Shown: positions 3,290 to 24,475, counted from the first letter of the stretch. The stretch is 25,491 nt of DNA from an uncultured virus (IMG/VR IMGVR_UViG_3300031943_000020) (IMGVR_UViG_3300031943_000020), one strand, 5' to 3'. The notes: generated by a model from the letters alone, not told the origin. Numbers and translations: made by a program.

Positions 3290-3298
3290 GAGTGTACC

Positions 3299-3676: not shown

Positions 3677-3947
3677 CGCGCTGCCTGGCTGGCATGCCCC
3701 GGTCTATAGCGGTATGGCCGCGCCGCCGAGTTTTCACGGCGTGCCGCAGATGTTCTTTGTCTTCGACCTGCTGGGGACGTTGTTCGTGGCGTTCATCTTT
3801 CTCTTGATTCAGCCGGTCTATAGCGTGTTGGTGGTGCTGGTGGGGGCGAGTTGCTACGGCGTGGTCTATGCCTGTGTGCAGGTAGAGCCACGGCTGGGTC
3901 GCATCCTGAAAGAGTACCGCAGCTACAAGCGGGTGTATGAGGGGTAA
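3669..3947 (+). CDS. trbD: TrbD/VirB3 inner-membrane protein
   Basis: GWHAPVYSGMAAPPSFHGVP matches the TrbD pattern (P-V-x-x-x-L-x-x-P-x-x-x-x-G-x-P); two TM helices; 92 aa; synteny. Confidence 0.8.
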   Translation: MADALPGWHAPVYSGMAAPPSFHGVPQMFFVFDLLGTLFVAFIFLLIQPVYSVLVVLVGASCYGVVYACVQVEPRLGRILKEYRSYKRVYEG

Positions 3948-3950
3948 GGC

Positions 3951-4280
3951 ATGATACGTGAGTGGGGTATACACGTCGTATTCGGGTTGCTCATGGCGGG
4001 ACTCTTTCTGGCAGGTTTCGTCACACGTCCGTTCCTTACTGCCCCCCGCGAGGACTGCTTTGCGGCACGGGAGGCGACGGCGATGGTCGTCCAGCGGGGG
4101 ACGTGGAATGATGACAAAGAGCGCTGGTGGGTGACCGTGGCCTTTGCGCCTGCCAACTGGCACCGCACCTATGCCTCACCGCAGGAGGCCCCACGCACGC
4201 GTCATATGGGCTTCTGGAGTGCAGAAGGCACCCTGGGAACGATGACGCCCATTATTGCCTATACCACGAATCCGGAGTAG
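3951..4280 (+). CDS. Hypothetical membrane-anchored protein between trbD and trbE
   Basis: Fills the gap exactly; single N-terminal hydrophobic helix; no recognised family. Confidence 0.6.
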   Translation: MIREWGIHVVFGLLMAGLFLAGFVTRPFLTAPREDCFAAREATAMVVQRGTWNDDKERWWVTVAFAPANWHRTYASPQEAPRTRHMGFWSAEGTLGTMTPIIAYTTNPE

Positions 4281-4299
4281 GCCGCATGCGGGGGACTCC

Positions 4300-6501
4300 A
4301 TGAGTACACCAGTCGCTAAGCTCGTACTCTGGGACGCGATGGCCAATGCGCATACGCTGGTCAATAGGGATGGTGCGCTTATGAGCTGTATCCGCTTTCG
4401 TGGTCCAGATCTGCACAGTGCCATGGCCAGTGCCCTGCTCGTCCAGGCCGAGCAACTCAACAATTGTTTCAAGCGTCTGAGCGGAGGCTGGGGGGTCCTG
4501 AGTGAAGCCCGGCGCCGTGAGGTGCGGACCTATCCTGCGAGTACGTGGACGCATCCGGCGGCCCGCCTCGTGGACGAGGAACGGTGTGCGCGGTTCTTGA
4601 CACCCGGCCTGCATTATCAGACGGACTGCACGCTCACGCTGACGCAACGGCAGGCCCCTAAGCTGGCCGGTGCCTGGAAGCATCTCCTGTATGAGGGGCT
4701 CCCGAAGGCCGTACCGCTGCCGGGGCTCACCGCCTTTGAAGAACAGGTCCGCCGCACGGTCGCCCTCCTTGGGGAAGCCTGCGAGGAGGTGATCCTCTTG
4801 GAAGACAATGCTCTGCTCACGTATCTCCACAGTACCGTCAGTTGGAAAGACTACGCCGTGGCGGTGCCCGATCCTCCCGCCTACCTCGACACGTACCTCA
4901 GCCGGGATGCGACCATCGCGTATGTCTGGGCACTTCCGTCGCTCATTCAGTACCCGACGCTGAACGGGCAGCACGTGCGCTGTGTCAGTGCCCTGGCGTA
5001 TCCCAAGCAGACGGAGCCAGGCCTGCTCGATGTGCTCGATACCTTGCCGCTCGAATATCGCGCGACGGTGCGGTATCTGCCCCTGTCCAGGCAGGCCGCC
5101 ATCCGGGCTGCACAGGCGGCCGGCGATTCGTACTGGGGGCAGCGCCACCGGGGAACCAATACGCGCACGGAAAAGGCGTCGATGACGCGCGCCGAGGATG
5201 CGAGCACGTTTCAAGAGGGTATCGAGCTGGACGCGTGGATGGCCGGGTACGTCACGCAGACCATTGTGGTGTGGGATGCCACTCCCGAGGGCGCCATTGC
5301 CAAGGCGGAAACCATCGAAGCCACGCTGAACACCGCTGGTTTTACGGCGAAGGTGGAAGGGACCAATACGCTGCCGGCCTGGGACGGCAGCCTGCCGGGC
5401 AATCGCACGCGCAACCTCTCGACGACAATGCTGACGACCAGGAACCTGAGCCATCTGGTGCCGGCCACGAGTCATGTGCGGGGGCCAGCCTGGAATAAAC
5501 ACCTGGACGGGCCGCCGCTCCTCATGGTGACGGGACGGGGTCAGACGCCAGTGGCGCTCGATCTGCACGACGATGACGTGGCGCACACGTTTATTGTGGG
5601 GCCGCCGGGGACGGGCAAGAGCACGCTCGTGGCCAACCTGGCTCTGGCCTGGCTGAAATACCGGGGCGCGCAGGTCTACGCGATTGACAAAGACCAGTCG
5701 CTGCGTTGTGCGACCTATGCGGTCGGTGGCGATTGGTACGACATTGGCGCCGAGCTCACGGCCCAGACGCAGGGGAGTGCCGCGAGCATGGACGATCCCG
5801 GCTTTCAGGCGTGGGGGGCGCTCTGGACGCCACCGCCCGGCTGGTGGCAATGCTACGAGATGGCCAGTCTGCTTACGACCCCGACGATTATTCCGCAGGT
5901 GATGGGGCCGCTGCTGCGGCAGATGGAAGAGCGCTTGACGGGGGTGCCGACCCTGATTGTGCTGGACGAGGCCTGGGTGTACCTGCGCAACGAGTTCCTG
6001 CGGGGCAAGATCCAAGATTATCTCCTGACGCTACGCAAGAAAAACGGGGTGGTGATTTTCAGCACGCAAAACCTGGAACACCTGATTGGCAGCGAGATTG
6101 GGAGCGACGTGTATCAATCCTGCGTCACGAAGATTTTCCTGGCGAATGCCCAGGCCCTGACGCCCCATGTGGGAAAGCTGTACCGGGACCTGGGGCTCAC
6201 CGAGCGCGAGTGTTACCTGATCGCCACACTGGCCAGCAAGCGGCAGTACCTGGTTATGGGGCCGCATGGGCGGTATGTGATGGACCTCGGGATGGGCAAG
6301 GTGGGCCTGGCGTATACGGGCGTCGGGCGGAAGGAAGACCTAGCGGCTATTGCCGAGGTCTACGGACGATCACGGGCAGACTTTGCCCACAACTGGCTGG
6401 TGTACAAGGGGCTGCATGACGCGGCAGCGCGCTTGCACGAAGGAGACAACGATGAAGAAAATGCTGACCTGTGGCCTGCTGCTGCTCACGCTTTGGCCTA
6501 A
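4300..6501 (+). CDS. trbE: TrbE/VirB4 ATPase
   Basis: LVNRDGALMSCIRFRGPDLHSA N-terminus, Walker A GPPGTGKS, Walker B LIVLDEAW, LRKKNGVVIFSTQ. Start placed at ATG 4300. Confidence 0.95.
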   Translation: MSTPVAKLVLWDAMANAHTLVNRDGALMSCIRFRGPDLHSAMASALLVQAEQLNNCFKRLSGGWGVLSEARRREVRTYPASTWTHPAARLVDEERCARFLTPGLHYQTDCTLTLTQRQAPKLAGAWKHLLYEGLPKAVPLPGLTAFEEQVRRTVALLGEACEEVILLEDNALLTYLHSTVSWKDYAVAVPDPPAYLDTYLSRDATIAYVWALPSLIQYPTLNGQHVRCVSALAYPKQTEPGLLDVLDTLPLEYRATVRYLPLSRQAAIRAAQAAGDSYWGQRHRGTNTRTEKASMTRAEDASTFQEGIELDAWMAGYVTQTIVVWDATPEGAIAKAETIEATLNTAGFTAKVEGTNTLPAWDGSLPGNRTRNLSTTMLTTRNLSHLVPATSHVRGPAWNKHLDGPPLLMVTGRGQTPVALDLHDDDVAHTFIVGPPGTGKSTLVANLALAWLKYRGAQVYAIDKDQSLRCATYAVGGDWYDIGAELTAQTQGSAASMDDPGFQAWGALWTPPPGWWQCYEMASLLTTPTIIPQVMGPLLRQMEERLTGVPTLIVLDEAWVYLRNEFLRGKIQDYLLTLRKKNGVVIFSTQNLEHLIGSEIGSDVYQSCVTKIFLANAQALTPHVGKLYRDLGLTERECYLIATLASKRQYLVMGPHGRYVMDLGMGKVGLAYTGVGRKEDLAAIAEVYGRSRADFAHNWLVYKGLHDAAARLHEGDNDEENADLWPAAAHALA

Positions 6502-7168
6502 CGTGAGTTGGGGAGTATTCGGGGTTGGAGATATCGTGGTTGATCTCATTACCGAGGCACAGACGTCGCTGACGGCGCTGCGTACCCTCGCCTCGAACCT
6601 CAACGAGGTGAAGATCTTGAATAATCAGGTGACCCAGCTTGGGAACGACGCCGCCAATTTGGCCAAGCTGCCCCTGTCCCTCGTGGGCGAGGTGCAACAG
6701 ACGATGACCACGGCGACGAACTTGTTCAATCAGGGGCGGGCGATTGCCTACCAGGCGAAGGCCTCTCTGGATGCCTTCGATACGCTGTTTACCAATGGCC
6801 AGATACCTTTTAGTCAGCGTGCGCAAGCCATCTTCAACGAAATTCGCCAGACCAGTCGCCTCGCCACCCAGGTCCAGTCTATTTATGACGAGTTGTGTGC
6901 CAATACGGCTCGTGTCGAGCAACTCACGAATGCCAGTCAGGCGGCCGTGGGCGTGCTCCAAGCCGAGCAGGCCGGCAATCAACTCCTGGGCGTGCTCGCC
7001 AGCCAGCAAAACGGCATGTACCAGTTGCAGGCGAACACGGCGCGGCTTCAGACGCTGGTCTATATGCAAGGCGTGGTCGAAGACGAAGCGGCGAAGCAGC
7101 ATGCGGAGAATATGCTCAAGGACTGGCCCACCACATTGGGGGGCGTCACGGGGTTTAAGCTGCCCTAG
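6452..7168 (+). CDS. trbJ: TrbJ/VirB5-like protein
   Basis: SD AGGAG at 6441, signal peptide MKKMLTCGLLLL, Q/N-rich helical body, ASQAAVGVLQAEQAGNQLLG typical of TrbJ. Confidence 0.88.
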   Translation: MKKMLTCGLLLLTLWPNVSWGVFGVGDIVVDLITEAQTSLTALRTLASNLNEVKILNNQVTQLGNDAANLAKLPLSLVGEVQQTMTTATNLFNQGRAIAYQAKASLDAFDTLFTNGQIPFSQRAQAIFNEIRQTSRLATQVQSIYDELCANTARVEQLTNASQAAVGVLQAEQAGNQLLGVLASQQNGMYQLQANTARLQTLVYMQGVVEDEAAKQHAENMLKDWPTTLGGVTGFKLP

Positions 7169-7180
7169 AGAGGAGATAGT

Positions 7181-7387
7181 ATGCGTGACGGGATACGATG
7201 GGGCATTGATGTTCAAGCGGCCACACTGCTCTGGAGGCTCACCAGCTTCCTGTGTGGGCTGCTGCTTCTGCCCGTGCTCGGGCTCGCTCTTGCCGGGCAG
7301 TATGTGCTGGCGAGTGTCTGGTTGTGCGTCGTTCTGGCGGTCCAGCGGGGCGTGTGGCGATTCCTGCTGCGGCGCATGATGCCATGA
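7181..7387 (+). CDS. Small two-TM membrane protein in the trbK (entry exclusion) position
   Basis: SD GAGGAG, ATGA overlap with trbL, two hydrophobic helices; function inferred only from position. Confidence 0.6.
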   Translation: MRDGIRWGIDVQAATLLWRLTSFLCGLLLLPVLGLALAGQYVLASVWLCVVLAVQRGVWRFLLRRMMP

Positions 7388-8334
7388 ATCCCCTCCCCGA
7401 AGGTGGCCTGCTCACCAAGCTCCTGCAAATCTTCGTCTTTAACTTTGCGGGGGGCGTGGACCGGCTGACGCCCGATGCGCAGTGGCTGCTCGTGCTGTTC
7501 TACGGCATCGACCTGGTGAGCACGGGAATCTGGTTTGTCATGCGGCGCGAACTCGACATGTGGTCGCTGCTGACCCGTGCCTTGACGGCGGTCATCTTTG
7601 GCTGGCTCATTACCAACTGGGTGGTCGTGACCAAGGCGCTGATGCAAGGCTTTCTCGGGGCTGGGATCAAGGCCGGGGGGGATAGCCTGACGGAGTTGGA
7701 CTTCACCAACCCGGATCGCATCCTCATGCATGGCTTTGGCGTGACGGCCGTGATCTTTCGGATGATCGCCGACACCAGTCTCTGGTCACTCAAAACGCAG
7801 GTACTCAACCTCCTGGCGGGACTCGTGACCCTGGCCACGATGAGCATTTATATTGTGCTCGCCGGCTTCGCCTTTCTGGCCCTGGTGGAGTTTTACTGGA
7901 GCTTGCCCGTGACGCTCATCATGTTGCCGTTTAGCATGCTCCCACGGGCGCATTGGCTGGCCGAGCGCGGTATTGCCCATACCTTTGCCGGGGCCATTCG
8001 CATTGGCGGGATTGCCCTCGTGCTGTCCGCCTCGCTCCCCCTCATGGTGACGGCGAGTTGGGGGAGCGTGGACAGCCTGACCGCCGCCTTTTATACCCTG
8101 ATTATCGCCTTTGCCCTGGCGGGCATGGCCTGGAAAGTGAATAGCTGGGCACGGGCCGTCCTGAACGGCAGTCTGGCCTTTGGGCCGCAGGATGTGACGA
8201 ATCAGATCCGCAGTATGACGACGCAGATTACGCATCTCGGTATCGTGATGCAGGCGTTGATGGACACGCTAGCCCACACGGACCCGGGCCATGCGTCGAG
8301 GCAACCACCACCGACAGCGAGGAATCGCCCATGA
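7384..8334 (+). CDS. trbL: TrbL/VirB6 polytopic membrane protein
   Basis: Multiple TM helices; GIKAGG..FTNPDRI and LVEFY..LIMLPF..WLAERGI match TrbL. Start at ATG 7384 overlaps the previous stop. Confidence 0.9.
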   Translation: MNPLPEGGLLTKLLQIFVFNFAGGVDRLTPDAQWLLVLFYGIDLVSTGIWFVMRRELDMWSLLTRALTAVIFGWLITNWVVVTKALMQGFLGAGIKAGGDSLTELDFTNPDRILMHGFGVTAVIFRMIADTSLWSLKTQVLNLLAGLVTLATMSIYIVLAGFAFLALVEFYWSLPVTLIMLPFSMLPRAHWLAERGIAHTFAGAIRIGGIALVLSASLPLMVTASWGSVDSLTAAFYTLIIAFALAGMAWKVNSWARAVLNGSLAFGPQDVTNQIRSMTTQITHLGIVMQALMDTLAHTDPGHASRQPPPTARNRP

Positions 8335-8741
8335 ACCACTCACGCCTCCCGACCGTCGCGCTCTTTACTCTGCTGGCCTTGCTGATCCTCTGCTCGCTGC
8401 TCACCCTCCTCCTGAGTAGCTGTGCGGGCTCCTTTGCGGGGCGGGCGCCTGAAACGCGCACCCTCACTGTGCCCTATAGCCAGGCGCAGGCCTATACCAG
8501 GTCGTCGCAGGTGCTCAGACAGATGGGGGCTGAGATGACCGCGATGGATGGTCGCCAAGCGCTCCAGGGCCTCGTGCATGGCGCGGTTCTCCTCAGTGTA
8601 CAGCTTCAGGAGCAGGGCATGAGTACCCTGGTGACCGTCACGGCCAGCATTCCCCCTGGCAAGCTCATACTGGGGACGGTCGATGAACTTGACCAGTTCT
8701 GTACCCGACTCCAAGCGGTGGAGACGGTCTATGCTCACTAG
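8331..8741 (+). CDS. Putative lipoprotein in the virB7 position
   Basis: Hydrophobic signal ending in LLLSSC (lipobox-like); ATGA-coupled to trbL and overlaps the trbF start. Confidence 0.65.
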   Translation: MNHSRLPTVALFTLLALLILCSLLTLLLSSCAGSFAGRAPETRTLTVPYSQAQAYTRSSQVLRQMGAEMTAMDGRQALQGLVHGAVLLSVQLQEQGMSTLVTVTASIPPGKLILGTVDELDQFCTRLQAVETVYAH

Positions 8742-9354
8742 CCATCCCGAGGCGGGCATGGAGGAGCGACTGGGCGTGATCGAGCGCGTCGCCAATGCGG
8801 GGCGGTCCTGGCGTCATGCCACCTTTGTCTTGCTGGGTCTGGGCGGGCTGTCACTGCTGGTGCACGTCTACGCCTTTAGCCGGCCTGGCGAGAAATTTGC
8901 GGTCATTGAGATTGATACCTGTGGAGGCCAGAGCCGCGTCGTAGGACCGCTTCCGACCCATCTGTCGTTTCGGCAAGTGGCGATTAATCGCGTGCTGCAA
9001 GACTTCGTCATGGACCTGCGGGGCATCAGTACCGATGTGGAAGTCACGAAGGCCCAGTGGCGGCGATTGCGCGACCAGGTGACCCCGGAGGGGGCGCAGC
9101 TCCTCCTCCAGACAGAGGTGGACTACCAGCCGCTAACGAAGCGCGACTCGGTCGTGGTCAAGATTATTCGGGTGCAGCCGCGGGACCCGACACGCTATGA
9201 CGTGCGCTGGCAGGAGAATCGGTACAGTCCCAAGGGGGAACTCGTCGAGGGGAAGGTCTACGGGGGGTTGTTCACGTTCGAGTGGAGTACTCCCAGGGAA
9301 GCGGCGCCGCTGGGCATGCTCTTTCGCCAATGGCAGGTAGGTCAGGAAAAATGA
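8731..9354 (+). CDS. trbF: TrbF/VirB8
   Basis: EERLG..RSWR + TM helix, FVMDLRGISTD, YDVRWQENRY, PLGMLFRQW. Confidence 0.88.
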   Translation: MLTSHPEAGMEERLGVIERVANAGRSWRHATFVLLGLGGLSLLVHVYAFSRPGEKFAVIEIDTCGGQSRVVGPLPTHLSFRQVAINRVLQDFVMDLRGISTDVEVTKAQWRRLRDQVTPEGAQLLLQTEVDYQPLTKRDSVVVKIIRVQPRDPTRYDVRWQENRYSPKGELVEGKVYGGLFTFEWSTPREAAPLGMLFRQWQVGQEK

Positions 9355-10547
9355 TGGCTGGACCGTCCCCACAACCACGGTTGCGCCGCTGGGTGGTGCC
9401 GGTCGCCATCGTCGTGGGCGTGTGCCTCCTCGTAGTCGTGCTGGCGCTACCCAGTCTCGTGGCGCGGTTCTCCCTGCCGTCCTGGCACAGTGATGGGACC
9501 GACACGGCCCCGACGACGCCGGTAGTCCTCCCAGACACCTACCGAGAGCCGACGACCACCTATGGTGCCAAGCCTGTGAAGGCACTTGCCCCTGAGCCTG
9601 TTGCCCCGGTGCAGACGAGTACGCTGGCACCGGTGACGATGCCCCAGCCACCTGCTGCCTTGCTCCAACCGCCGCTGTCTACACGCCAGACGGTGAGCAC
9701 GGCGAACATCCCTACGGCGCAACTTCAGCAGACGCCAGGACTCCCTGGGGCCACCCAGCAGGCGCAGCGGCCCCTCCTGCCAGGGGAGCGCCAGCCGCCG
9801 TACCCGCTGCCGCAGACCCAAGGCGCTGGTCCCAAGCGCTGGGGGATTGACTTGACGCATACGCAGCAGCAACGGCGCCAGCCATCGGCACAGGAACGGG
9901 AAGAGGCGCGGCGGCAGGAGGAGGCGAAGAAGCTCATCAAACCAGCACTCTGGGCCACGCCTGCCTTTCCGAAAAAGACGCTCTACCGGCAGCAAGCCAT
10001 CCCAGGGATCACTATTGATGAAATGGTCAGTGACATCCCCGGACAGTACAAAATACGCGTGAGTGTGCCCGTGTACGATCGCTTTGAGCGTGACGTTGAA
10101 CTGATTCCCAAGGACTCGATTGTGATTATCACACAGAAGCGCGTACCCGGGTACGGCGAGAAGCGTCTGGAATTAGCCGTCGAGGAGATTCAGCCGCCGA
10201 CACCCGAAGTGATTAGCCTGAAGGCCTCCGTGTCGGACAAAGAAGGCGGAGCGGGGGTAGCAGGCGACGTCAACAATCATTACGGAAAGCTTATCCTGGC
10301 CACGATTATTTCCACGGCCATTAACATTGGGGGACGCGTGGCCGCAGGCACTCCACAGGGGTACCAATATAGCGTCGGGCAGGAGGTCGTGCGCGAGGCC
10401 GGACAACAGGTATCACAGGATGCGAAAACCATTATAGACCGTCAATTGCGCGTGCCCCCGACCATTACCATACCGGCGCAGACCCCTGTCAGTGTGAGTC
10501 TCCTTGAAAACGTGACGTTTAGTCGCAAACCCGTAACCGTGCGCTAA
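9351..10547 (+). CDS. trbI: TrbI/VirB10
   Basis: TM helix, Pro/Gln-rich linker, then SDIPG..VSVPVYD..LIPKDS, DKEGGAGVAGDVNNHYGKL, VPPTITIPAQ. Confidence 0.92.
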   Translation: MMAGPSPQPRLRRWVVPVAIVVGVCLLVVVLALPSLVARFSLPSWHSDGTDTAPTTPVVLPDTYREPTTTYGAKPVKALAPEPVAPVQTSTLAPVTMPQPPAALLQPPLSTRQTVSTANIPTAQLQQTPGLPGATQQAQRPLLPGERQPPYPLPQTQGAGPKRWGIDLTHTQQQRRQPSAQEREEARRQEEAKKLIKPALWATPAFPKKTLYRQQAIPGITIDEMVSDIPGQYKIRVSVPVYDRFERDVELIPKDSIVIITQKRVPGYGEKRLELAVEEIQPPTPEVISLKASVSDKEGGAGVAGDVNNHYGKLILATIISTAINIGGRVAAGTPQGYQYSVGQEVVREAGQQVSQDAKTIIDRQLRVPPTITIPAQTPVSVSLLENVTFSRKPVTVR

Positions 10548-10562
10548 CCGCGAGGGACGACG

Positions 10563-11261
10563 ATGCGTGTTGTCTGTCTTGTAGTAGTCCTTATGCTCGG
10601 GGGCTGCGTGATTGGCGACGTGGCACCGCCTGAGTTGCCTCTGGGGCCGCTGGTGACGTATGCGCCCCCGGATACACCGCCGGATGCCATTCCCCCGACG
10701 CCCACACTGATTGCCTTTACGCCACCGGTCATCCCCAGCCCTCCCCCAAAGGTTGCGCGGGTGGAGCGATTAAAGGACCTTCCAGCATCCAAGCCGGAGC
10801 CGGTGCCGCAGCCTACCATGATGATTAAAGATGCGCACCGGGCCGCGCAGATCGAGCCCCAGGCCCGCGGCTATCATGGCCAGAGTGCGACGCAACGCTG
10901 GATCTGGCAGCCTGGAAAATTGTACGTGGTGTATGTGGCGTCGAGCCAGATGACCAAGATTGTGCTGCCGCCCGGCGAGTTGCTCGTGTCGAAGGTGTTT
11001 CTCGATCCGGAACTCTGGGACGTGCAATCGTACCGGGTCGGCAACGAGACGCAGACACAGGACGTCGTGTTCGTGCGGCCCTTAGAGGCGAAGGAGGGGA
11101 AAGGGGCGAAAGATGTAGACCTGGCGCTCCTGACCGAGCAGGGCCATAGCTATGATGTCCATTTGAAGGTAGGGAGTACGGGCATGTTCAGCGTGACGTG
11201 GTCGAATCCGACCGTCCCGCAACTGCTCGTCGATGATCAGCCCTTGAGGAGTCATCCATGA
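10563..11261 (+). CDS. trbG: TrbG/VirB9-like protein (N-terminal domain only)
   Basis: Lipobox LGGC, Pro-rich linker, WQPGKLYVVY..TKIVLPPGELL..VFVRP..HSYDVHL..FSVTW; ends soon after. Confidence 0.8.
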   Translation: MRVVCLVVVLMLGGCVIGDVAPPELPLGPLVTYAPPDTPPDAIPPTPTLIAFTPPVIPSPPPKVARVERLKDLPASKPEPVPQPTMMIKDAHRAAQIEPQARGYHGQSATQRWIWQPGKLYVVYVASSQMTKIVLPPGELLVSKVFLDPELWDVQSYRVGNETQTQDVVFVRPLEAKEGKGAKDVDLALLTEQGHSYDVHLKVGSTGMFSVTWSNPTVPQLLVDDQPLRSHP

Positions 11262-16809: not shown

Positions 16810-17064
16810 ATGGCAGAAACACTAGGAGATCGGATACGAGTTGCACGGGCACGACTTCGTCTCAGCCAGGCAGCCCTCGCCAGGCGCATCGGTATTAGCT
16901 CGACGGCGATGAATGCTATCGAGTCAGGAGGGGCTGATCCACGGGCGTCACGGATTACGGCCCTGGCAAAAGCCTTGCAGGTCCGTCCTGACTATCTGCT
17001 AGGGTATACAGAGGAAGGACACGATGATGCCCCGCTTACCCTGGGTCTACTACCTCAGCCTTGA
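16810..17064 (+). CDS. XRE/Cro-family HTH regulator
   Basis: LGDRIRVARARLRLSQAALARRIGISSTAMNAIESGGADP..LAKALQVRPDYLLG; no peptidase domain. Confidence 0.92.
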   Translation: MAETLGDRIRVARARLRLSQAALARRIGISSTAMNAIESGGADPRASRITALAKALQVRPDYLLGYTEEGHDDAPLTLGLLPQP

Positions 17065-18059: not shown

Positions 18060-20660
18060 ATGCCACGCGCGCCACGTCCTAGTGTGCCCCAGGATGATCT
18101 GACGACGACGCTGGAACTGTTGCCCCTGGCTGACTTACGCCCCCATCCTCGCAATGATGGGTCGCATCCTCCTGAGGAACTCGCCCATCTCAAGCAAAGC
18201 CTGACTGAGCATGGCGTCTATCGCAATGTGGTGGTGGCTAAGGATGGCACGATTCTCGCTGGGCATGGGGTGGTCCAGGCAGCACGGGAACTTGGCCAGA
18301 CCCACATTGCGGGCAAGCGCCTACCCTATGGCCCCGACGATCCGCAGGCCCTCAAGGTGCTCGTGGGGGATAACCATATTGCGCGGCTGCGGCTTCAGGA
18401 TGATGCGCTGCTCGCGATGCTCCTTGAGGAGGTAAGCCACGATGATCCGCTGGCGTTGCTCGGGACAGGCTTCGATGCGGAGACGCTGGCGGCGCTGGGG
18501 GAGAGGCAGGGCGTATGGCCTGCAACGGGGGATGGGGAGGGCCGTGATGCTTTAGGCGCCGCTGGGGGCTCCCTGTCCACGGTGTCGCTGGCCGAGCGGT
18601 TCCTGGTGCCCCCGTTTAGCGTGTTGGATGCGCGCCAGGGCTACTGGCAGGCACGGAAACGGGCCTGGATTGCGCTGGGGATACAGAGTGAGTTGGGGCG
18701 GGGTGACAATATTGGAGCCATTCCAGCCAATGAAGCGGCGCTCCCTGAGCGCCGCTTCAGCACCGAGAACGGCCTGCTGGGAGAATCCCAGCAGGCCCGC
18801 AGTCACTACCGCGCCAGTCCTGGAGGGACGTTGCGTCCCGCAACGTCCCTCGGCAAAGACGGCAAGACACAGCGCGGCGACGGGGCTGGCAAGCCCCTGG
18901 CCCGAACCGAAGGTTCGGGCAGTCCAGGGGAGTTAGCGGCAGCCTACAAGGCGCAGGGCCGTCTCACGGCCCTGCAAAAGACGGGGGATAGCCGGCAAAC
19001 GGCCAGCTTGCGTGGGGGCTTGCTGTTTGGTACGACGCTCCATCCGTATGATGGAGCGTCGCCAAGCGGTGATCGTATGGGGAACCCAAGGGTGAACAGC
19101 GTCTTCGGGCCGCCCGAAGACGCTGGGACGGCTGCGTCACAATCGGGTACCTCCATCTTTGACCCCGTCCTCTGCGAATTGGCCTATCGGTGGTTCTGCC
19201 CGCCTGGCGGCACCATCCTCGATCCCTTTGCCGGGGGCAGTGTGCGCGGCATTGTCGCCGCCCGGCTGGGGCGTGCCTATACCGGCATTGATCTGCGCCC
19301 GGAACAACTCGCTGCGAATGACGCCCAATGGACCCAGATTGGTGGGGGTCCTGCCGGCGCCCCTGCGCTCCTCGCCCCTCCGCGTGTCGAATCCTGTGGC
19401 GACCTGCGCATCGTCCGCGATGACGAGGTGCCCGGCGGCTCCAAAGTCCGGGCGCTTCTCCGTGTACTACCGACGTTTCCGGCTGAGGAGCTGGTCTATG
19501 CGAGCCCTGCCGCTGGCTTTGCGCAGATTGCGCTGGCCCTGGCGGCCCAGATGACCGGAAAGCGCGCCACCATCTTTGTGGCGCACCGCAAGACGTTGCA
19601 TCCGTGTACGGCTGCTGCCCGCCAAGCCGGCGCTCGCATTGAAGAAGTCCCTGCCGGGTACCTCTCCAATGTCCAGGCGAAAGCCCGGGCCTATTGCGCG
19701 ACAACGGGTGCTGAGTTGGTGCCGTTTGGTCTGGACGCCCCGCCCTACCTGGAGGCTCTGGCCCAGATGGCGCGGGAGACCGGTGAGCACCCCAACGAAG
19801 TCTGGTGTGTGGCGGGGAGTGGCGTGCTGGCCCGCGCCTTGCGGCAGGCCTGGCCGACGGCCCACCTCTGCGTCGTGGTGATTGGCAAGGCGCCCACGCT
19901 TCCCGAGGACAATATCCACGTCTACCAGGCTCCCGAAGCCTTTGAGCAGGACGCACGCCAGCCGCCGCCTTTTGCGTCGTGTGGGCATTATGATGCCAAG
20001 GCGTGGCAGTTTGTGACGCAGCATGCGACGCCTGGCGCCTTGTTCTGGAATGTGGCGGGGGAGGCTCCCCTGGATGCCGCGCCTTCTAGGGTCTGTGCGC
20101 CGCGCTGGCTGGTGGGGGATAGCCAGGCGCTGGACACGTTACCGCTCGACCCGGCCTACGACTTTGTGTTTACCTGTCCCCCGTATGCCGATCTCGAACA
20201 GTACAGTGATGATCCCCGGGACCTTAGCGTCATGGACTTTCCGGCCTTCCTGGGCGCCTATCGTACTATTCTGGCCCAGGCGCTCGCCCGGCTGAAGGCG
20301 GACCGCTTTGCCTGTGTGGTCGTTGGGGATGTCCGTGCGCCTGATGGCTCCTACCGCAATCTGGTGAGTGAAACCATTGCGGCCGGCCAGGCGGCGGGGG
20401 CGACGCTCTACAATGAGGCGATCCTGGTGACTGCGGTGGGGAGCCTGCCCTTGCGCGCGGGGATCCCCTTTGTGGCCACGCGTAAGCTCGGCAAAACGCA
20501 TCAGAATGTACTGGTCTTTGTGAAGGGTGATGCGCGCCGGGCCACGGAGGCGTGTGGCCCGGTTGAGGTCACGCAGGCGTTAGAAGCGGTTATGCCGATA
20601 GGGGAGTCGAGCGGAGCGCTCGATACTGCATATAATACCCCTGCGGGCGCTCTGGAGTAA
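18060..20660 (+). CDS. ParB-like domain + amino (N6A/N4C-type) DNA methyltransferase interrupted by a PLP-dependent fold-type-II domain
   Basis: ParB: LRPHPRN..LKQSLTEHG..ILAGHG..DNHIA. MTase: TSIFDPVLCE..ILDPFAGGS..GIDLRPEQ (SAM-binding) and GDS..DFVFTCPPY (catalytic). Insert: VRDD..GGSKVR..VYASP..GFAQIALA..VWCVAGSGVL..YDAKAW..LFWNV. Confidence 0.85.
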   Translation: MPRAPRPSVPQDDLTTTLELLPLADLRPHPRNDGSHPPEELAHLKQSLTEHGVYRNVVVAKDGTILAGHGVVQAARELGQTHIAGKRLPYGPDDPQALKVLVGDNHIARLRLQDDALLAMLLEEVSHDDPLALLGTGFDAETLAALGERQGVWPATGDGEGRDALGAAGGSLSTVSLAERFLVPPFSVLDARQGYWQARKRAWIALGIQSELGRGDNIGAIPANEAALPERRFSTENGLLGESQQARSHYRASPGGTLRPATSLGKDGKTQRGDGAGKPLARTEGSGSPGELAAAYKAQGRLTALQKTGDSRQTASLRGGLLFGTTLHPYDGASPSGDRMGNPRVNSVFGPPEDAGTAASQSGTSIFDPVLCELAYRWFCPPGGTILDPFAGGSVRGIVAARLGRAYTGIDLRPEQLAANDAQWTQIGGGPAGAPALLAPPRVESCGDLRIVRDDEVPGGSKVRALLRVLPTFPAEELVYASPAAGFAQIALALAAQMTGKRATIFVAHRKTLHPCTAAARQAGARIEEVPAGYLSNVQAKARAYCATTGAELVPFGLDAPPYLEALAQMARETGEHPNEVWCVAGSGVLARALRQAWPTAHLCVVVIGKAPTLPEDNIHVYQAPEAFEQDARQPPPFASCGHYDAKAWQFVTQHATPGALFWNVAGEAPLDAAPSRVCAPRWLVGDSQALDTLPLDPAYDFVFTCPPYADLEQYSDDPRDLSVMDFPAFLGAYRTILAQALARLKADRFACVVVGDVRAPDGSYRNLVSETIAAGQAAGATLYNEAILVTAVGSLPLRAGIPFVATRKLGKTHQNVLVFVKGDARRATEACGPVEVTQALEAVMPIGESSGALDTAYNTPAGALE

Positions 20661-21007: not shown

Positions 21008-21472
21008 ATGGGACGTCCTTTTCCGGATATTACGCCATATATTGACAAGCTCGTGAATGCGATTCTCATTGGCGCGACGTATGAACTGGCGGCGCTCTAT
21101 GCCGGGATTAGTGTCGATACCTTCGGGCGGTGGCGCAAGAAGGCCGCGACGGCGCCCGCCGGGACCCCTTTGGCCCTGTTGCATGAACGGCTCCAGGAGG
21201 CGGAGGGCCGTGCGGCTATCGGGTGGCTGGCGAAAATTGAGAAGGTTGCGACGGAGGGTGATTGGAAAGCCGCGGCGTGGAAATTGGAGCGTCGCTATCC
21301 TGAGACCTATGGTCGTACGTTCCAGAAGGTGGCGCTTACCACGCCTGATGGTGAAGCTGCTGCGCAGCCCACGATTATTTTCCTCCCCGCCCAATCGCCC
21401 AGCGCCGAGGAATGGGCGCAATCGGTGCAACATCTCTTGCCCACCAACGGGCACAAGCCTGATGAGGCATAG
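21008..21472 (+). CDS. terS: Putative terminase small subunit (HTH)
   Basis: HTH GATYELAALYAGISVDTFGRW and DWKAAAWKLERRYPETYG; sits immediately before terL. Confidence 0.72.
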   Translation: MGRPFPDITPYIDKLVNAILIGATYELAALYAGISVDTFGRWRKKAATAPAGTPLALLHERLQEAEGRAAIGWLAKIEKVATEGDWKAAAWKLERRYPETYGRTFQKVALTTPDGEAAAQPTIIFLPAQSPSAEEWAQSVQHLLPTNGHKPDEA

Positions 21473-21475
21473 CCT

Positions 21476-22903
21476 GTGGCAACGACCGCCCCGCCTGCGT
21501 CCGTTGCGGGTCGCGTCCTGTGGTATCCCCAGCCCAAGCAACACGCCCTCATGAGCTGTCCTGTCGAGGATATTCTCTTTGGTGGAGCGCGCGGCGGTGG
21601 GAAGACCGATGGCCTGGGCGGTGACTGGTTGCGGCATGCGCAGCACTATGGCCCTGCGGCACGTGGCTTCTTCTTTCGTATGACGTATCCAGAGTTAGAG
21701 GAAGTCGAGCAACGGTTTCAGGACTTCTTCCCCGCGATGGGCGGCACCTGGCAGGCGGCCAAGCGGACCTGGACCTTTGCTAATGGCGCACGGCTGCGCA
21801 TGCGGTATCTCGCCAGCATCAAAGATGCGACACAGTATCAAGGGTTTAGTAATACCTGGGTCGGGGGCGATGAGCTGGGCAATTATCCTGACAGCAAGGC
21901 CGTCGATCTCCTACGCGCAACCTTGCGCTCAGCAGCGGGCGTGCCGTGCGTGTTTCGGGGGTCCGCCAATCCTGGCGGCGTCGGCCATAACTGGCTGCGT
22001 GCCCGCTACGTTGATCCTGCCCCACCGCTGACGCCGTTTGATGCGGTCGAGACGGTGGCGGGCGAGACGATCACCGTCAAGCGCTGCTACATCCCCTCAA
22101 CGCTGGAAGACAATGCCCTGCTCATGCGCAACGACCCCACGTACTGGCAGCGGGTTATGGCGGCAGCCGGGGGCAATGAGGCACTCCTTAAAGCCTGGCG
22201 GTATGGGGATTGGGATGTCATTGCCGGCGGGCTGCTCGATGACGTGTGGGACGCGCGGGTGCATGTGCTAGAGCCGTTCGACATTCCTACGGCATGGACG
22301 ATTCGGCGGGCGTTTGACTGGGGTAGCTCGAAGCCGTTTAGCGTGGGGTGGTGGGCGCATGCCGACGGGGCATGCCCGGCTGGACCGCAGCAGGTTGTCT
22401 ATCGCAAGGGCACGCGCTTTCGCCTTATGGAACTGTATGGGTGGAATGGCAAGCCCAATGAAGGCTTGCGGCTTACTAATACCGACATTGCGCGGCGCAT
22501 TAGGGAGGTCGAGGCTAGCTCGCCCTATGCGGGCCGTATTCAGGCTGGCCCTGCGGATAGCCAGATTTATGATGTCGTCAACGGCCGCTCGATTGCGCAG
22601 GAGATGGCGACCCAGGGCGTAAGCTTTATTGCGGCCCAGAAAGGGCCAGGCTCGCGGCGTCAGGGCTGGTCGATGTTGCGACAGTTGCTCAATGCGAGTC
22701 GTCACTGGCCGATGGAGGAGCCGGGGCTGTTTGTCTTTAACACGTGTCGCCAATTTATCCGTACCGTGCCCATCTTGCCGCGCGATCCGCGTGATGCAGA
22801 TGATGCTGATACGGACGCGGAAGACCATGTGGGGGATGAGTGCCGATATGAATGTACCATGCCCTTGCCCACGAAGGCCGAGATGCGCGGCTTGAGGTTC
22901 TAG
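21476..22903 (+). CDS. terL: Terminase large subunit (Terminase_6-like)
   Basis: PQPKQ, Walker A GGARGGGKT, Walker B VGGDELG, GSANPGG, nuclease RAFDWG..ADS..EDHVGDECRY. Confidence 0.96.
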   Translation: MATTAPPASVAGRVLWYPQPKQHALMSCPVEDILFGGARGGGKTDGLGGDWLRHAQHYGPAARGFFFRMTYPELEEVEQRFQDFFPAMGGTWQAAKRTWTFANGARLRMRYLASIKDATQYQGFSNTWVGGDELGNYPDSKAVDLLRATLRSAAGVPCVFRGSANPGGVGHNWLRARYVDPAPPLTPFDAVETVAGETITVKRCYIPSTLEDNALLMRNDPTYWQRVMAAAGGNEALLKAWRYGDWDVIAGGLLDDVWDARVHVLEPFDIPTAWTIRRAFDWGSSKPFSVGWWAHADGACPAGPQQVVYRKGTRFRLMELYGWNGKPNEGLRLTNTDIARRIREVEASSPYAGRIQAGPADSQIYDVVNGRSIAQEMATQGVSFIAAQKGPGSRRQGWSMLRQLLNASRHWPMEEPGLFVFNTCRQFIRTVPILPRDPRDADDADTDAEDHVGDECRYECTMPLPTKAEMRGLRF

Positions 22904-22906: not shown

Positions 22907-24475
22907 ATGTCCGTTGCGCTGAACCATCCTCAATACGATGAGTATGTGTATACTTGGCAGACCCTGCGTGATGCCTATGCCGGATCGGGAAACATCAAAC
23001 CCGCGGTAGTGTCCTCCAATAGTGCTCGCTCAAGTACCGGTATCAAGCAGGCCGGCACGCGCTACCTGCCCAGACCTGAAGGCATGCGCCTCGATTCCCA
23101 ATACGCGGCGTACCGCGACCGCGCCACGTGCAGCGGCGCACCCCAATGGGTCGCGCTCGGCCTGACGGGGGCGATCTTTCGCCGTGAACCGCAACTGGAG
23201 GTGCCCTCTCAACTCGATCCTCAGATGCGCAATGTGACCCGCACTGGCCTCCCGCTGCGCACCTTTGCGGAAGAAGTGGTACGCGATACGTTGCGCATGG
23301 GGAGGTACGGCGTCCTGCTCGATTTCCCCGCGCCGACCGTGCTGCCGAATGGCCGGGTCATTCCTCCCCCGCCTGGTTCTCGCCCGTACTGGATACCCTA
23401 CGCGACCGAGGAGATCGTCAACTGGCATGTAGTAGAGCGCGAAGGGGCGGAGCATATCGACATGATCGTCCTTGAGGAGAGTGTGCCCATGCGCCAGGGA
23501 GCATGGGGCACGGATGACTACTTCGTGATCAAGAATCAGCTCCAGCGCCGGGTGCTCCGGCTCAATGAGGAGGGCGTCTATGAGGTGAGCGTGTGGGTGA
23601 AAGTGCCGGCTACTCTGGGGGGCCAGCCCGCTACGTTCATGCCCACGCAGACGTGGATCCCTGATCGCATGGGGGAGCCGCTGAAGTTCCTCCCGTTCGT
23701 CTCAATGACGCCGCTGTCCCTCAAGCTCGATATTGTGCAATCGCTCCTGGAATCGCTTGTGGAGATTAGTTATAGGTATTATAGGCATAGCGCAGATTAT
23801 GAGCATGCCTTGCACCTGACCTCGCTCCCGACGCCCTGGGTGAGCGGCAATCTCGATCCCGCCACCGAACTCCTCATCGGCTCCCTCGTCGCCTGGGTCT
23901 TGCCCGATGGGGCGCAGGCGGGTATGCTGGAATACAAGGGCCAGGGCCTTCAGCCGCATGAGCACGCGATGCAGCAGGACCTCCATGACATGGCCGCCCG
24001 TGGCGCGAGTCTGCTGGAGGTGGCACCCCTGGTTCCCGAAACAATGACGGCCATGCTTACGCGCACGCAGGGGAGTGAGAGTCCCGTACAGACGTTGATT
24101 CGCAACGTAAGTGAGGGATTGACCACCTTGTTACGGTGGCACGCCTGGTGGAATGGCCAAAGTGAACGGCTCGATGATCCTGCGATTAGTTACAACCTGA
24201 ACAACAAGATCGCGGCCACAACGTTAGCGCCCCAACAGCTTCAGGCTCTCATGCAGACGTTCCTCAATGGGGCGATGTCATACGAAACGTTTTATTATAA
24301 TTTACAACAGGGCGAAGTAGCCCGTCCAGGTGTTGAGGTGGAGGAAGAGCAGGCCTTGCTCGAGGCGCGGGAAGCGGAACGGCTGGTGACGATGGCACAG
24401 GAGCAACGCATCGCAGGACGCAATGGCCAGCCGCGGCAGAACGGGCAGGCCGTGGGTCAAGGTGCTCGGGGGTAG
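22907..24475 (+). CDS. Portal protein (DUF4055-type)
   Basis: HPQY..YLPRP..YAAYRDRA, HSADYEHALHLTSLPTPWVSG, IGS..AGMLEY; follows terL. Confidence 0.88.
   Translation: MSVALNHPQYDEYVYTWQTLRDAYAGSGNIKPAVVSSNSARSSTGIKQAGTRYLPRPEGMRLDSQYAAYRDRATCSGAPQWVALGLTGAIFRREPQLEVPSQLDPQMRNVTRTGLPLRTFAEEVVRDTLRMGRYGVLLDFPAPTVLPNGRVIPPPPGSRPYWIPYATEEIVNWHVVEREGAEHIDMIVLEESVPMRQGAWGTDDYFVIKNQLQRRVLRLNEEGVYEVSVWVKVPATLGGQPATFMPTQTWIPDRMGEPLKFLPFVSMTPLSLKLDIVQSLLESLVEISYRYYRHSADYEHALHLTSLPTPWVSGNLDPATELLIGSLVAWVLPDGAQAGMLEYKGQGLQPHEHAMQQDLHDMAARGASLLEVAPLVPETMTAMLTRTQGSESPVQTLIRNVSEGLTTLLRWHAWWNGQSERLDDPAISYNLNNKIAATTLAPQQLQALMQTFLNGAMSYETFYYNLQQGEVARPGVEVEEEQALLEAREAERLVTMAQEQRIAGRNGQPRQNGQAVGQGARG

Follow-up and report, generated by a model that had tools for sequence, protein, structure and literature searches.

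A DNA-modification gene of a phage 'ParB-terminase' locus was found to encode a methyltransferase (MTase)-type protein whose Rossmann domain carries an entire, compact PLP enzyme in the loop that joins strands 2 and 3. The gene lies in a window of 25,491 nucleotides, i.e., the whole stretch of DNA that was analyzed, from an uncultured virus (IMG/VR IMGVR_UViG_3300031943_000020). According to the ORF list and the translation, it is a single, unbroken ORF of 866 amino acids at positions 18060-20660, on the + strand, as are all other features described below. With the Pfam and PHROGs matches added, the domain order of the product is ParB, linker, MTase N-half, PLP insert and MTase C-half; the PHROGs matches to MTase, PLP and ParB profiles are far beyond chance in strength. 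The original prediction, made from the sequence alone, had described three domains in this ORF, with the PLP enzyme amid the MTase motifs. This layout is confirmed by the ORF itself, PHROGs, Pfam, AF2 and Foldseek, and each of the three domains is matched by PHROGs profiles. Taken as a whole, the earlier interpretation is partly supported: the three domains, the PLP fold and the reality of the fusion stand, but the serine-kinase role suggested for the ParB domain does not.

The next gene downstream encodes the terminase small subunit (21008-21472; phrog_4102, E 2e-19), and the terminase large subunit (21476-22903; phrog_979, E 2e-26) and a portal protein (22907-24475; phrog_145, E 2e-96; PF13264) follow. 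Upstream of the module is a Cro/CI-type HTH regulator (16810-17064; phrog_8, E 9e-16; PF01381). No tRNA genes were found in the window, nor was a near match to it found among plasmids. The identical stretch is also present in an IMG/VR contig, L014.

ParB domain and divided methyltransferase

The N-terminal domain has the ParB/Srx fold (residues 16-148, 18105-18503), and was assigned from phrog_620, phrog_15396, Spo0J 6sdk and alignment A1. In PHROGs, phrog_620 matches over residues 16-148 (E 4e-19) and phrog_15396 over residues 18-223 (E 8e-29); altogether, nine ParB or nuclease PHROGs match the window protein, with E from 8e-29 to 4e-5, and the ParB matches span residues 16-223. Pfam did not report PF02195 for the window protein at E up to 1; this family is on record for three fused homologues. 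In alignment A1, the window protein reads GHGV at the usual ParB GHGR, i.e., the conserved Arg of the GxxR nucleotide-binding motif is absent; to judge from the accessible portion of the literature, this Arg is probably the one needed for NTP binding. The original prediction had likened this domain to the ParB-fold serine kinases SerK and SbnI. That idea was rejected as unsupported: its closest solved relative in a PDB sequence search is Spo0J (6sdk, E 5e-5), no SbnI or SerK chain is found among the PDB sequence matches of the ParB domain at E up to 1, and most ParB-MTases are insert-less. Beyond the ParB domain, a conserved segment, F..PPFSVLDARQGYWQARKRAWIALGIQSELGR (residues 181-214, 18600-18701), forms nearly invariant columns in alignments A1, A3 and A4, and is common to all family members, with or without a ParB domain. 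A poorly conserved Gly/Ser/Pro-rich linker, with gappy, unconserved columns in A1, occupies residues 215-360 (18702-19139).

The MTase N-half (residues 361-430, 19140-19349) includes SIFDPVLCE..YRWF, motif I, motif II GIDL and helix B, as judged from PF01555 over residues 379-417, the A3 invariants and AF2. The C-half (residues 681-845, 20100-20594) includes motif III W.VGDS, motif IV and the distal motifs to GKTHQNVLVFVKGD, as judged from phrog_498, phrog_12517, A3, 2zie and AF2. Motif I, DPFAGGS, corresponds to residues 388-394 (19221-19241), GIDLRPEQ to residues 409-416, GDS to residues 686-688, and motif IV, TCPPY, to residues 705-709 (20172-20186). Both DPFAGGS and the acidic motif II GIDL are invariant in alignments A3 and A4. 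CPPY is likewise invariant, in 10/10 sequences of A3; its Cys, at the first place, is outside the residues of the classic (D/N/S)PP(Y/F/W) motif, and our literature search yielded no paper pairing 'CPPY' with methyltransferase. The match to phrog_498, a DNA MTase family of PHROGs, has an E of 2e-100 and is split into two stretches, and N6_N4_Mtase (PF01555) scores 38.1 bits in Pfam against a cut-off of 26.7.

The original prediction had proposed that a structural model would show the MTase reconstituted around the insert. An AF2 model of residues 355-866 (pLDDT 84.3; pTM 0.65, a value at which the interdomain geometry carries no confidence) indeed re-forms the MTase strands on both sides of it, with strands 1-2 before and strands 3-5 after the insert, and block pLDDT values of 86-97. 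In model numbering, MTase strands are found at 31-34 and 52-57 in the N-half and at 328-331 and 346-351 in the C-half. Structure 2zie matches both halves, in swapped order. The MTase is an N6/N4-amino-MTase-type Rossmann domain, an unpermuted relative of PF01555. In beta-class MTases, the junction between strands 2 and 3 is the point of circular permutation, where additions are tolerated, according to the accessible text of Iyer et al. 2016 (PMC4738411).

The inserted PLP domain and its kinship with M6 gp52

The insert is a fold-type II PLP domain of 223 amino acids between MTase motifs II and III (residues 443-665, 19386-20054; phrog_7093, AF2, Foldseek and hhalign); the limits first proposed, 19377-20060, agree with these to within a few codons. 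Modeled alone by AF2, it reaches a pLDDT of 95.4 and a pTM of 0.91. The top PDB matches that Foldseek listed for the insert are fold-type II PLP enzymes only, among them 4d8w (E 7e-11) and 1j0a (TMq 0.79). The Pfam family PALP (PF00291) scores 28.5 bits in the window protein, below its cut-off of 35; some homologues exceed this cut-off, e.g., with 46.2 and 42.0 bits.

VRDD..GGSKVR spans residues 452-464, and the AAA codon of its Lys462, the predicted PLP Schiff-base lysine, is located at 19443-19445, exactly where it had been placed. In profile alignments this Lys coincides with that of the 1j0a GGNK and TrpB GGAHK motifs, and its column reads K in 218/218 non-gap rows. The loop VAGSG (residues 584-588) contains the Gly-rich AGSG (residues 585-588, 19812-19823) that is predicted to bind the PLP phosphate, as it aligns with 1j0a aaGSGg and OASS vGTGG; position 587 is S in 206 and T in 10 of 223 rows. 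The family motif YDAKAW (residues 644-649, 19989-20006) emerges from column counts and from the hhalign alignment with YDLKAW of M6 gp52. Across the Y-[DE]-x-K columns, there are 206 Y and 7 F, 203 D and 12 E, and K in 215/216 rows; the residue after Tyr is an acid in 215/216 rows. Thus, the likeness to ACC deaminase and D-cysteine desulfhydrase that had been pointed out is borne out in the fold, the Lys and the Gly loop, and Y-D-x-K is conserved as well. The Asn of the S-x-N or TSGNT loop, which contacts PLP O3', is not kept: OASS TSGNT aligns with AYGYA/AAGFA, and position 487 is F, Y or G.

By sequence, the insert is a member of the phrog_7093 / M6 gp52 family. Residues 448-666 match phrog_7093 (PHROGs, E 2.4e-35) over profile positions 17-278 of 279, and M6 gp52 itself matches the same family with an E of 2e-159. 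An hhalign comparison of a 70-sequence insert profile with M6 gp52 gave 98.5% and E 1.8e-15 over 218 columns. In that alignment, Lys36 of gp52 pairs with Lys462, with SKIRG of gp52 opposite SKVRA of the window protein; YDxKAW and FWN[VI]G are also common to both. As described in the accessible text of Lee et al. (NAR 2021, PMC8989533), M6 gp52 and ViI gp226 absorb at 410-425 nm when purified, and decarboxylate amino-acid:nucleobase conjugates in polymeric DNA. The original prediction had drawn a connection with the PLP enzymes that tailor hypermodified thymidine; this connection is stronger than had been noted, because the insert shares both its PHROG and its profile family with M6 gp52, a DNA-acting decarboxylase.

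Distribution of the module

The fusion is real and recurrent. The possibility of a one-off assembly artefact, raised at the outset, was rejected: 81 fused homologues were found, and the fusion is also present in Erythrobacter phages that have been cultured. Most often, the PLP enzyme is encoded by a separate gene of ~235 amino acids that overlaps the end of the ParB-MTase gene, upstream of the terminase. Among the best 150 cluster representatives, 105 have the PLP enzyme as a stand-alone protein and 12 have it internally, all 12 as DPFAG..PLP..CPPY. The stand-alone gene follows a phrog_498 ParB-MTase and precedes the terminase in 4/4 viral loci checked, and lies directly 3' of the MTase in 27/80 genome loci; MTase and PLP genes overlap by 4 nt in 11 loci. 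In minimal prophage modules, only the MTase and PLP genes stand ahead of the terminase. No PLP module is present in 51/80 genome loci, nor in 52/91 loci of a sample biased towards having PLP. In these counts of homologues with and without the insert, of the kind that had been proposed, insert-less ParB-MTases are in the majority, and a separate PLP gene is commoner than the fusion.

In a tree of 86 MTase rows, PLP presence changes at least 22 times. Close sisters differ at 100* support, e.g., L053 without and L067 with PLP; because PLP presence switches between such sisters, the MTase must work without the PLP module. The same MTase site can also harbor a second, divergent PLP type as an insert (phrog_3650; Pam4 gp70), C-terminal fusions of PLP to SPPY-type MTases also occur, and a different genome module has the gene order SbcCD - PLP - SPPY MTase. 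In 80 loci of related PLP clusters we found the PF05118 2OG dioxygenase in 14, YunG in 8, HD in 6, and two SPL-like radical SAM genes in 1; in 31/80 loci, PLP family members reside in clusters in which no MTase could be detected. For contigs of one type (L211), the gene that precedes PLP was considered as an amino-acid:DNA transferase, and this was not confirmed (hhalign to M6 gp51, 0.1%); the gene has no Pfam, PHROG or PDB match.

A tblastn search with the insert against cultured phages returned only 3 records. Carriers of the module in culture are the Erythrobacter phages R6L and ZS04, the Microcystis phage Mae-JY30 and the Pseudanabaena phage Pam4; prophage carriers were found in Sinorhizobium, Paracoccus, Bartonella and Rhodobacter. 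Four records with an MTase-linked PLP (R6L, Mae-JY30 and Pam4, whose genomes are complete, plus a 63-kb contig) were searched for ADDT, HMUDK_hel and thymidylate synthase, which were found in 0/4, and in 1/1 for the control, M6. The search thus covered PF18723 and PF18724, the families that stand for the 5-hmdU kinase and the amino-acid:DNA transferase, and neither of these is found in the window. In phage ZRG1, an insert-less ParB-MTase is followed by an AdoMet decarboxylase (PF02675, E 1.6e-23), which would represent an alternative route to an aminopropyl donor. As a general partner this decarboxylase was rejected, as it is found in 1/42 downstream ORFs, with no more matches in any ORF set.

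Possible chemistry and known systems

The polypeptide may install more than a methyl group. The reading we tentatively prefer, at somewhat less than an even chance, has the MTase-like domain attach an amino-acid adduct derived from AdoMet, which the PLP domain then trims. Around packaging, ParB would guide the enzyme to phage DNA. A base would be flipped out by the MTase-like domain, which would place an AdoMet group bearing an alpha-amino acid on the exocyclic amine of that base, the most economical candidate being the 3-amino-3-carboxypropyl moiety. The PLP domain would form an aldimine with the tethered amino acid via Lys462 and remove the carboxylate, as gp52 and ViI gp226 do with glycinyl- and seryl-thymidine. 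The base would then bear a positively charged aminoalkyl (aminopropyl) group, which could be a block to restriction. Phages without a PLP gene might stop one step earlier, or simply methylate. This adduct chemistry is favored by the kinship with gp52, the kept catalytic residues, the MTase linkage, the lack of any other adduct source in the four records searched, the tailoring enzymes in related clusters, and the AdoMet decarboxylase that follows the ZRG1 MTase. Against it, DPFAGGS, GIDL, GDS and CPPY are the motifs seen in ordinary amino-MTases that transfer methyl, and PLP-less relatives have them unchanged; the majority of family members are without PLP, which is optional among near-identical MTases; PALP is sub-threshold; the S-x-N Asn is lost; and the AdoMet decarboxylase occurs in 1 locus only. 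A decarboxylase activity of the insert would be carried over by analogy from relatives that are ~25% identical, and fold-II enzymes catalyze many reactions. We know of no enzyme of the N6/N4-MTase fold that transfers aminocarboxypropyl to DNA, and a literature search of titles and abstracts produced no relevant work on an aminocarboxypropyl adduct in phage DNA. More specific, and rather doubtful, is the proposal of an undescribed base in which a CPPY/SPPY alkyl transferase would add 3-amino-3-carboxypropyl to the exocyclic amine of A or C, gp52-type decarboxylation would convert it to 3-aminopropyl, and 2OG dioxygenase, YunG or HD proteins would elaborate it in related clusters; ZRG1 would arrive at the same base via decarboxylated AdoMet.

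That PLP is optional among near-identical MTases would also be expected if these made ordinary m6A or m4C and the PLP domain, working on the alpha-amino-acid end of the cofactor (AdoMet or AdoHcy), gave an optional boost while phage DNA is modified in large amounts, either by clearing inhibitory AdoHcy or by turning AdoMet into another donor. We consider this unlikely. It does fit the association of PLP with CPPY, SPPY and SPPF MTases, whose common feature is AdoMet, as well as the AdoMet decarboxylase in the same slot in ZRG1 and the small amino-acid substrates of ACC deaminase and D-Cys desulfhydrase, the enzymes with the nearest solved folds. However, the characterized members of the gp52 family act on DNA-borne adducts rather than on a free cofactor, 31/80 loci have the PLP family in clusters without a detectable MTase, and we know of no fold-II enzyme that acts on AdoMet or AdoHcy. 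The variety of PLP neighbors in other phages (LOG/SLOG, MazG-like, dioxygenase and radical SAM genes) would instead suit an MTase that only methylates, with the PLP domain trimming an adduct made by an unlinked phage or host enzyme. The fusion would then reflect late-operon adjacency and a shared, ParB-guided access to DNA, and stop-codon loss between overlapping genes can indeed give C-terminal fusions. Yet we regard this as distinctly unlikely, given that two PLP subtypes have invaded the same internal loop, at several places of the MTase tree, that the complete R6L, Mae-JY30 and Pam4 genomes are without ADDT, HMUDK_hel and thymidylate synthase, and that minimal prophage modules consist of MTase and PLP genes only before the terminase.

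It is very improbable, in our judgment, that the PLP-fold domain is a non-catalytic module which would regulate or target the MTase by sensing a ligand, as a structural element or by recognizing DNA. Parallels for such a non-catalytic use are CysK, which can serve as a binding partner, and MocR regulators, whose effector domains have the PLP fold. The insert is without the usual Asn loop and ~90 residues shorter than solved enzymes, and it sits at the junction of strands 2 and 3, a place tolerant of additions according to the available text of PMC4738411. Nevertheless, at least 218 rows retain the Lys, the Gly loop and Y-[DE]-x-K, stand-alone forms are in the majority (105/150 best cluster representatives), and the relative gp52 is an active enzyme, as reported in the accessible part of PMC8989533. 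A replacement target-recognition domain was also considered and rejected: insert-less relatives have a short linker at this place, and the catalytic residues are kept.

To our knowledge, there is one established route to amino-acid-derived DNA hypermodification, which proceeds from 5-hmdU via a kinase and an amino-acid:DNA transferase to tailoring enzymes. A gp52-type tailoring enzyme is now placed in hundreds of phages and prophages without the rest of this route, and is there joined to an N6/N4 'methyltransferase', by fusion or by translational coupling. Either the activity of this MTase family goes beyond methylation, or the PLP family serves a second function. In the former case, there would be a new base, AdoMet would have a new use on DNA, and DNA labeling would gain new tools. 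The finding is also relevant to the way in which DNA is shielded from restriction by ParB-terminase loci.

Among solved structures, the nearest folds are those of the D-cysteine desulfhydrase 4d8w and the ACC deaminase homologue PH0054 (1j0a), with which RDD..GG[ST]K and the GSG loop align. The insert differs from them in being only 14-18% identical, ~90 residues shorter, without the Asn loop, phage-specific and tied to DNA enzymes. In the SbnI/SbnA and SerK/CysK pairs, a ParB-fold serine kinase feeds a fold-II PLP enzyme; the likeness is that of a ParB-fold domain and a fold-II PLP enzyme within one pathway. Unlike SbnI and SerK, the ParB domain described here is nearest to Spo0J, belongs to an ordinary ParB-MTase lineage mostly without PLP, and has GHGV for GHGR.

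The ParB-Tls loci were reportedly defined by Iyer et al. in 2013 (NAR). Among the titles and abstract openings listed by our literature search, no link between PLP and ParB or MTase was found. As far as the accessible texts go (PMC4738411, PMC6536676, PMC12704722), the phage ParB-MTases of these loci have, as here, a ParB N-terminal domain and an amino-MTase (phrog_498) directly upstream of the terminase genes. Neither PLP nor pyridoxal is mentioned in the available portions of Iyer et al. 2016 (PMC4738411), Decewicz et al. 2019 (PMC6536676) and the 2025 ParB-CTPase survey (PMC12704722). In the text at hand, Decewicz et al. (PMC6536676) state that the activity of ParB-MTase homologues is yet to be confirmed experimentally. 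CPPY is common to the window protein and to the insert-less proteins of Listeria phage B054 (gp77), prophiT37-1 (gp72) and ZRG1. A precedent for a phage MTase homologue that transfers a non-methyl group with the help of a neighboring enzyme is the CmoA/CmoX carboxymethyl-cytosine system of Synechococcus phage S-B43 (Nat Commun 2025, PMC12783734); according to the accessible text, this system differs from ours in its C5-MTase fold, in its Cx-SAM donor, supplied by CmoA, and in having no PLP enzyme. The closest parallel in sequence is offered by gp52 of Pseudomonas phage M6 and gp226 of Salmonella phage ViI, which, like the insert, are phage-encoded and have a 1j0a-like fold-II fold. M6 gp52, at ~25% identity, is a free protein of 278 amino acids, and the 5-hmdU pathway to which it belongs also includes a radical SAM isomerase besides a kinase and an amino-acid:DNA transferase, whereas the insert and its relatives reside inside or beside an N6/N4-type MTase.

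Architecture of the ParB-methyltransferase-PLP gene

The gene is located within a phage late-gene block, where the ORF list and translation give 866 uninterrupted residues on the + strand (18060-20660). On its 5' side are a gene for a Cro/CI-type HTH protein (16810-17064) and small ORFs of unknown function; the terminase small subunit (21008-21472), the terminase large subunit (21476-22903) and the portal (22907-24475) follow on its 3' side. The left half of the window (593-11261) carries a conjugative type IV secretion set identified with Pfam, about 5 kb from the packaging block and comprising a MobA/MobL relaxase, VirD4/TraG coupling protein, VirB4/TrbE, VirB6/TrbL, VirB8, TrbI/VirB10 and CagX/VirB9. 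This set could belong to an ICE or plasmid adjoining a prophage, or to a phage-plasmid; there are no tRNA genes in the window, and its comparison with plasmids gave no near match.

The original prediction described the product as a ParB-methyltransferase (MTase) with an inserted PLP enzyme. PHROGs, AF2 and Foldseek agree with this description, the motifs named in it were all correctly located, and the codon of the putative Schiff-base lysine (Lys462, 19443-19445) is confirmed as AAA. The PHROGs search matched three kinds of family, namely ParB families at residues 16-223 (E down to 8e-29), the DNA MTase family phrog_498 in two separate stretches (E 2e-100), and phrog_7093 ('threonine dehydratase') at residues 448-666 (E 2.4e-35, profile positions 17-278 of 279). 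With Pfam, N6_N4_Mtase exceeds its cut-off, and PALP, at 28.5 bits, is under its threshold of 35.

The motifs of the MTase core occur in the order I, II, III, IV, and the two parts of the core match the beta-class enzyme 2zie the other way round: the part with motif I corresponds to residues 221-266 of the 2zie chain, and that with motifs III-IV to residues 26-101. The MTase is therefore an unpermuted relative of PF01555. The insert (residues 443-665) falls precisely where strand 2 meets strand 3, which is the permutation point of beta-class enzymes (Iyer et al. 2016, PMC4738411). In insert-less relatives, among them Listeria phage B054 gp77, prophiT37-1 gp72, phage ZRG1 and many contigs, this site is just a few residues long, and CPPY is invariant in ten of ten aligned members, whether or not the insert is present. 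As had been anticipated, the Rossmann strands re-form on both sides of the insert in the AF2 model of residues 355-866 (pLDDT 84.3), with strands 1-2 before it and strands 3-5 after; at a pTM of 0.65, the inter-domain orientation is not confident. One fused homologue (P0016, 1129 aa) has a LAGLIDADG/intein-type insertion (PF14528, precomputed column) that interrupts GKTHQN, a conserved motif in the MTase C-half (columns about 1190-1580 of the homologue alignment, A1).

The suggestion that the ParB domain acts as a serine kinase was not borne out. Among solved proteins, Spo0J is the nearest to this domain in sequence; the domain falls within the ordinary ParB-MTase lineage, and its GHGR motif is altered, reading AGHGV at 18255-18272 (residues 66-71) versus AGHGR in most relatives in A1. 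Judging from these residues, the window ParB domain may lack nucleotide binding.

The PLP domain and its relation to M6 gp52

Modeling of the insert with a 70-sequence alignment gave a pLDDT of 95.4 and a pTM of 0.91 (AF2). The matches that Foldseek listed from the PDB are all fold-type II PLP enzymes, headed by D-cysteine desulfhydrase 4d8w (E 7e-11); the highest TM-score among them is 0.79, for the ACC deaminase homologue 1j0a. A PDB-sequence profile search recovered OASS, TrpB, 1j0a and diaminopropionate ammonia-lyase (E 3e-5 to 5e-4), and in these profile alignments the insert Lys falls opposite the PLP lysine of both TrpB and 1j0a, and AGSG opposite the glycine loops. The insert is thus predicted to fold as an entire PLP-type domain, with about 90 residues fewer than solved fold-II enzymes. 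Across the 223 domain rows gathered in this analysis, the Lys462 position is K in all 218 non-gap rows. In the YDAK motif, 206 rows have Y at the first position and 7 have F, 203 have D and 12 have E at the second, and 215 of 216 have K at the last. According to the profile alignments and the 223 rows, the insert family does not conserve the Asn of the usual TSGNT/SxN loop.

The closest link to known function is phage M6 gp52, a 278-aa protein annotated as 'threonine dehydratase' that matches phrog_7093 over its whole length (E 2e-159). The 70-sequence insert profile aligns with gp52 over 218 columns (hhalign 98.5%, E 1.8e-15), with gp52 Lys36 opposite Lys462. The profile and gp52 have YDxKAW and FWN[VI]G in common, motifs that do not occur in the aligned solved fold-II sequences, whose alignments stop before that region. 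According to the available text of Lee et al. 2021 (PMC8989533), gp52 and ViI gp226 were modelled on 1j0a, are yellow (absorbance 410-425 nm), and decarboxylate C-alpha-glycinyl-thymidine and O-seryl-thymidine in DNA. The insert therefore belongs to a family whose characterised members act on DNA-tethered amino acids. Phages with MTase-linked PLP lack the thymidine pathway. PF18724 (ADDT), PF18723 (HMUDK_hel) and PF00303 were all found in M6, the positive control, and in none of four records with an MTase-linked PLP domain (phages R6L, Mae-JY30 and Pam4, and a contig of 63 kb with a completeness rating of 81%).

Distribution and gene arrangements

The fusion is not a one-off assembly artefact. 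Searching with residues 430-680 in the 476-1516 aa size range gave 81 matching proteins, of which 70 have PF00291 together with PF01555 (precomputed column), and Erythrobacter phages R6L and ZS04 match in one piece over 94% of the length. R6L also has a PAPS-reductase-family gene (gp7, L001:3520-4563) about 1.4 kb 5' of its ParB-MTase-PLP gene; the window has no counterpart.

A HMMER search of the representative library yielded 1232 clusters at E <= 0.001 and 212 at E <= 1e-30. Among the best 150 representatives, a stand-alone PLP gene (~235 aa) is the commonest arrangement (105), followed by C-terminal (24), internal (12, all of the DPFAG..PLP..CPPY type) and N-terminal (9) domains. Fusion partners include CPPY MTases, SPPY/SPPF MTases, YunG (PF24585) and DUF3102. 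The stand-alone gene lies directly after ParB-MTase and before terminase in all four viral loci checked with PHROGs and in 27 of the best 80 genome loci, including Sinorhizobium, Bartonella, Paracoccus, Rhodobacter, Thioclava and Acidovorax. The PLP start codon and MTase stop overlap by 4 nt in 11 loci and by 17 nt in another (L007), and Microcystis phage Mae-JY30 has ParB, MTase and PLP on three separate genes. The same MTase loop also holds a second, divergent PLP-like type (phrog_3650, with GAK and YEAK motifs) in Pseudanabaena phage Pam4 gp70 (L003:5833-8319) and in loci L015-L017, L023, L030, L089 and L093; in the sampled loci it occurs as an insert only, never stand-alone.

On an MTase tree (FastTree, 86 rows, 346 columns, insert columns dropped; duplicates L025 and L078, the window's own copy L014 and fragments L039, L075 and L091 left out), PLP presence requires at least 22 changes, nine of them forced by starred branches, and proportions on the tree are biased because the loci were partly fetched with PLP-containing queries. 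Even sister MTases differ, with no PLP at L053 versus an adjacent one at L067.

Scanning viral contigs for DNA encoding YDAKAWxF gave at least 120 places; 80 were fetched with flanks, and all 80 encode a true PLP domain. Within 3.5 kb of the PLP gene, an N6/N4-type MTase occurs in 49 of the 80, frequently in the order SbcD-SbcC-PLP-SPPY MTase, a PF05118 2OG dioxygenase in 14, YunG in 8 and an HD protein in 6. At L199, L205, L217 and L192, a 391-451-aa 2OG-Fe(II) dioxygenase (PF05118, Asp/Asn beta-hydroxylase family, E 1e-9 to 1e-15) lies just 5' of the PLP gene; this dioxygenase is frequently found alongside a YunG-like protein, an HD phosphohydrolase and an SPPY-type MTase. At one of the 80 loci (L249:131-4959), the PLP gene stands between two SPL-like radical SAM genes (PF04055, PF20903) whose products match phrog_13321, as does M6 gp53; this is an M6-like hypermodification cluster. 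About 22 of the 80 come from contigs of large phages, in which the neighbours are MazG-like and LOG/SLOG proteins and an MTase is not detectable. Large-phage contigs up to 150 kb long carry a 298-aa PLP form (L175, L211, L230 and some 20 loci like them); it lies beside LOG/SLOG (PF03641), a MazG-like pyrophosphohydrolase, DNA polymerase, RNR and two unknown proteins. An Atlas likeness of one of the latter to amino-acid:DNA transferases was not confirmed by hhalign, Pfam or PHROGs.

Possible chemistry and relation to known systems

The architecture, the conservation of catalytic residues, the family membership and a tight, repeatedly reinvented linkage to amino-MTase-type enzymes are established. 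The PLP domain would need a base that carries an alpha-amino acid, and the sole linked enzyme able to provide such an adduct would be the MTase-like domain. The simplest source would be the 3-amino-3-carboxypropyl (acp) group of AdoMet, whose decarboxylation would leave an aminopropyl base. Pseudomonas phage ZRG1 (OQ504961.1, L006:4382-4768) has an insert-less CPPY ParB-MTase followed directly by an AdoMet decarboxylase (PF02675, E 1.6e-23) and then terminase genes, the single such case across all ORF sets searched; its decarboxylase could lead to the same aminopropyl product with the steps in the other order.

That the PLP domain acts on a DNA-borne adduct made with the MTase is a reading we put forward tentatively, and the specific acp/aminopropyl chemistry is doubtful. 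Against a DNA adduct, the MTase carries canonical motifs (apart from the Cys in CPPY, which is not a classic motif IV residue), near-identical MTases occur with and without the PLP module, and the majority of the MTase family is without it; furthermore, we know of no precedent for 3-amino-3-carboxypropyl transfer to DNA. The PLP domain might instead serve in cofactor handling, which seems unlikely, or be a tailoring enzyme independent of the MTase, for which the prospects are poor; that it is a non-catalytic module is highly improbable. The interpretation of the fusion as a DNA hypermodification enzyme is partly supported, and the homology to gp52 sharpens it.

ParB-MTase fusions and ParB-terminase loci have been described (Decewicz et al. 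2019, PMC6536676; Iyer et al. 2016, PMC4738411; a 2025 ParB-CTPase survey, PMC12704722), as has a phage T-dioxygenase activated by ParB (PNAS 2026). 'PLP' and 'pyridoxal' are absent from the available text of these four sources; that of Lee et al. 2021 (PMC8989533) has no ParB or aminopropyl, and none of its four uses of 'methyltransferase' refers to an N6/N4 DNA methyltransferase. Full-text literature searches brought up no description of a PLP and ParB/MTase pairing in the titles and abstract openings listed (10 of 11 hits); literature searches likewise found nothing for 'CPPY' with methyltransferase or, in titles and abstracts, for an acp adduct in phage DNA. Database annotators had already seen the domain, in that Pam4 gp70 is a 'pyridoxal-phosphate dependent enzyme' and PF00291/PF01555 Pfam pairs are recorded. 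The window protein combines two known kinds of system, a ParB-terminase-locus MTase and a gp52-type tailoring enzyme, and there is a genuine possibility that its chemistry is new.
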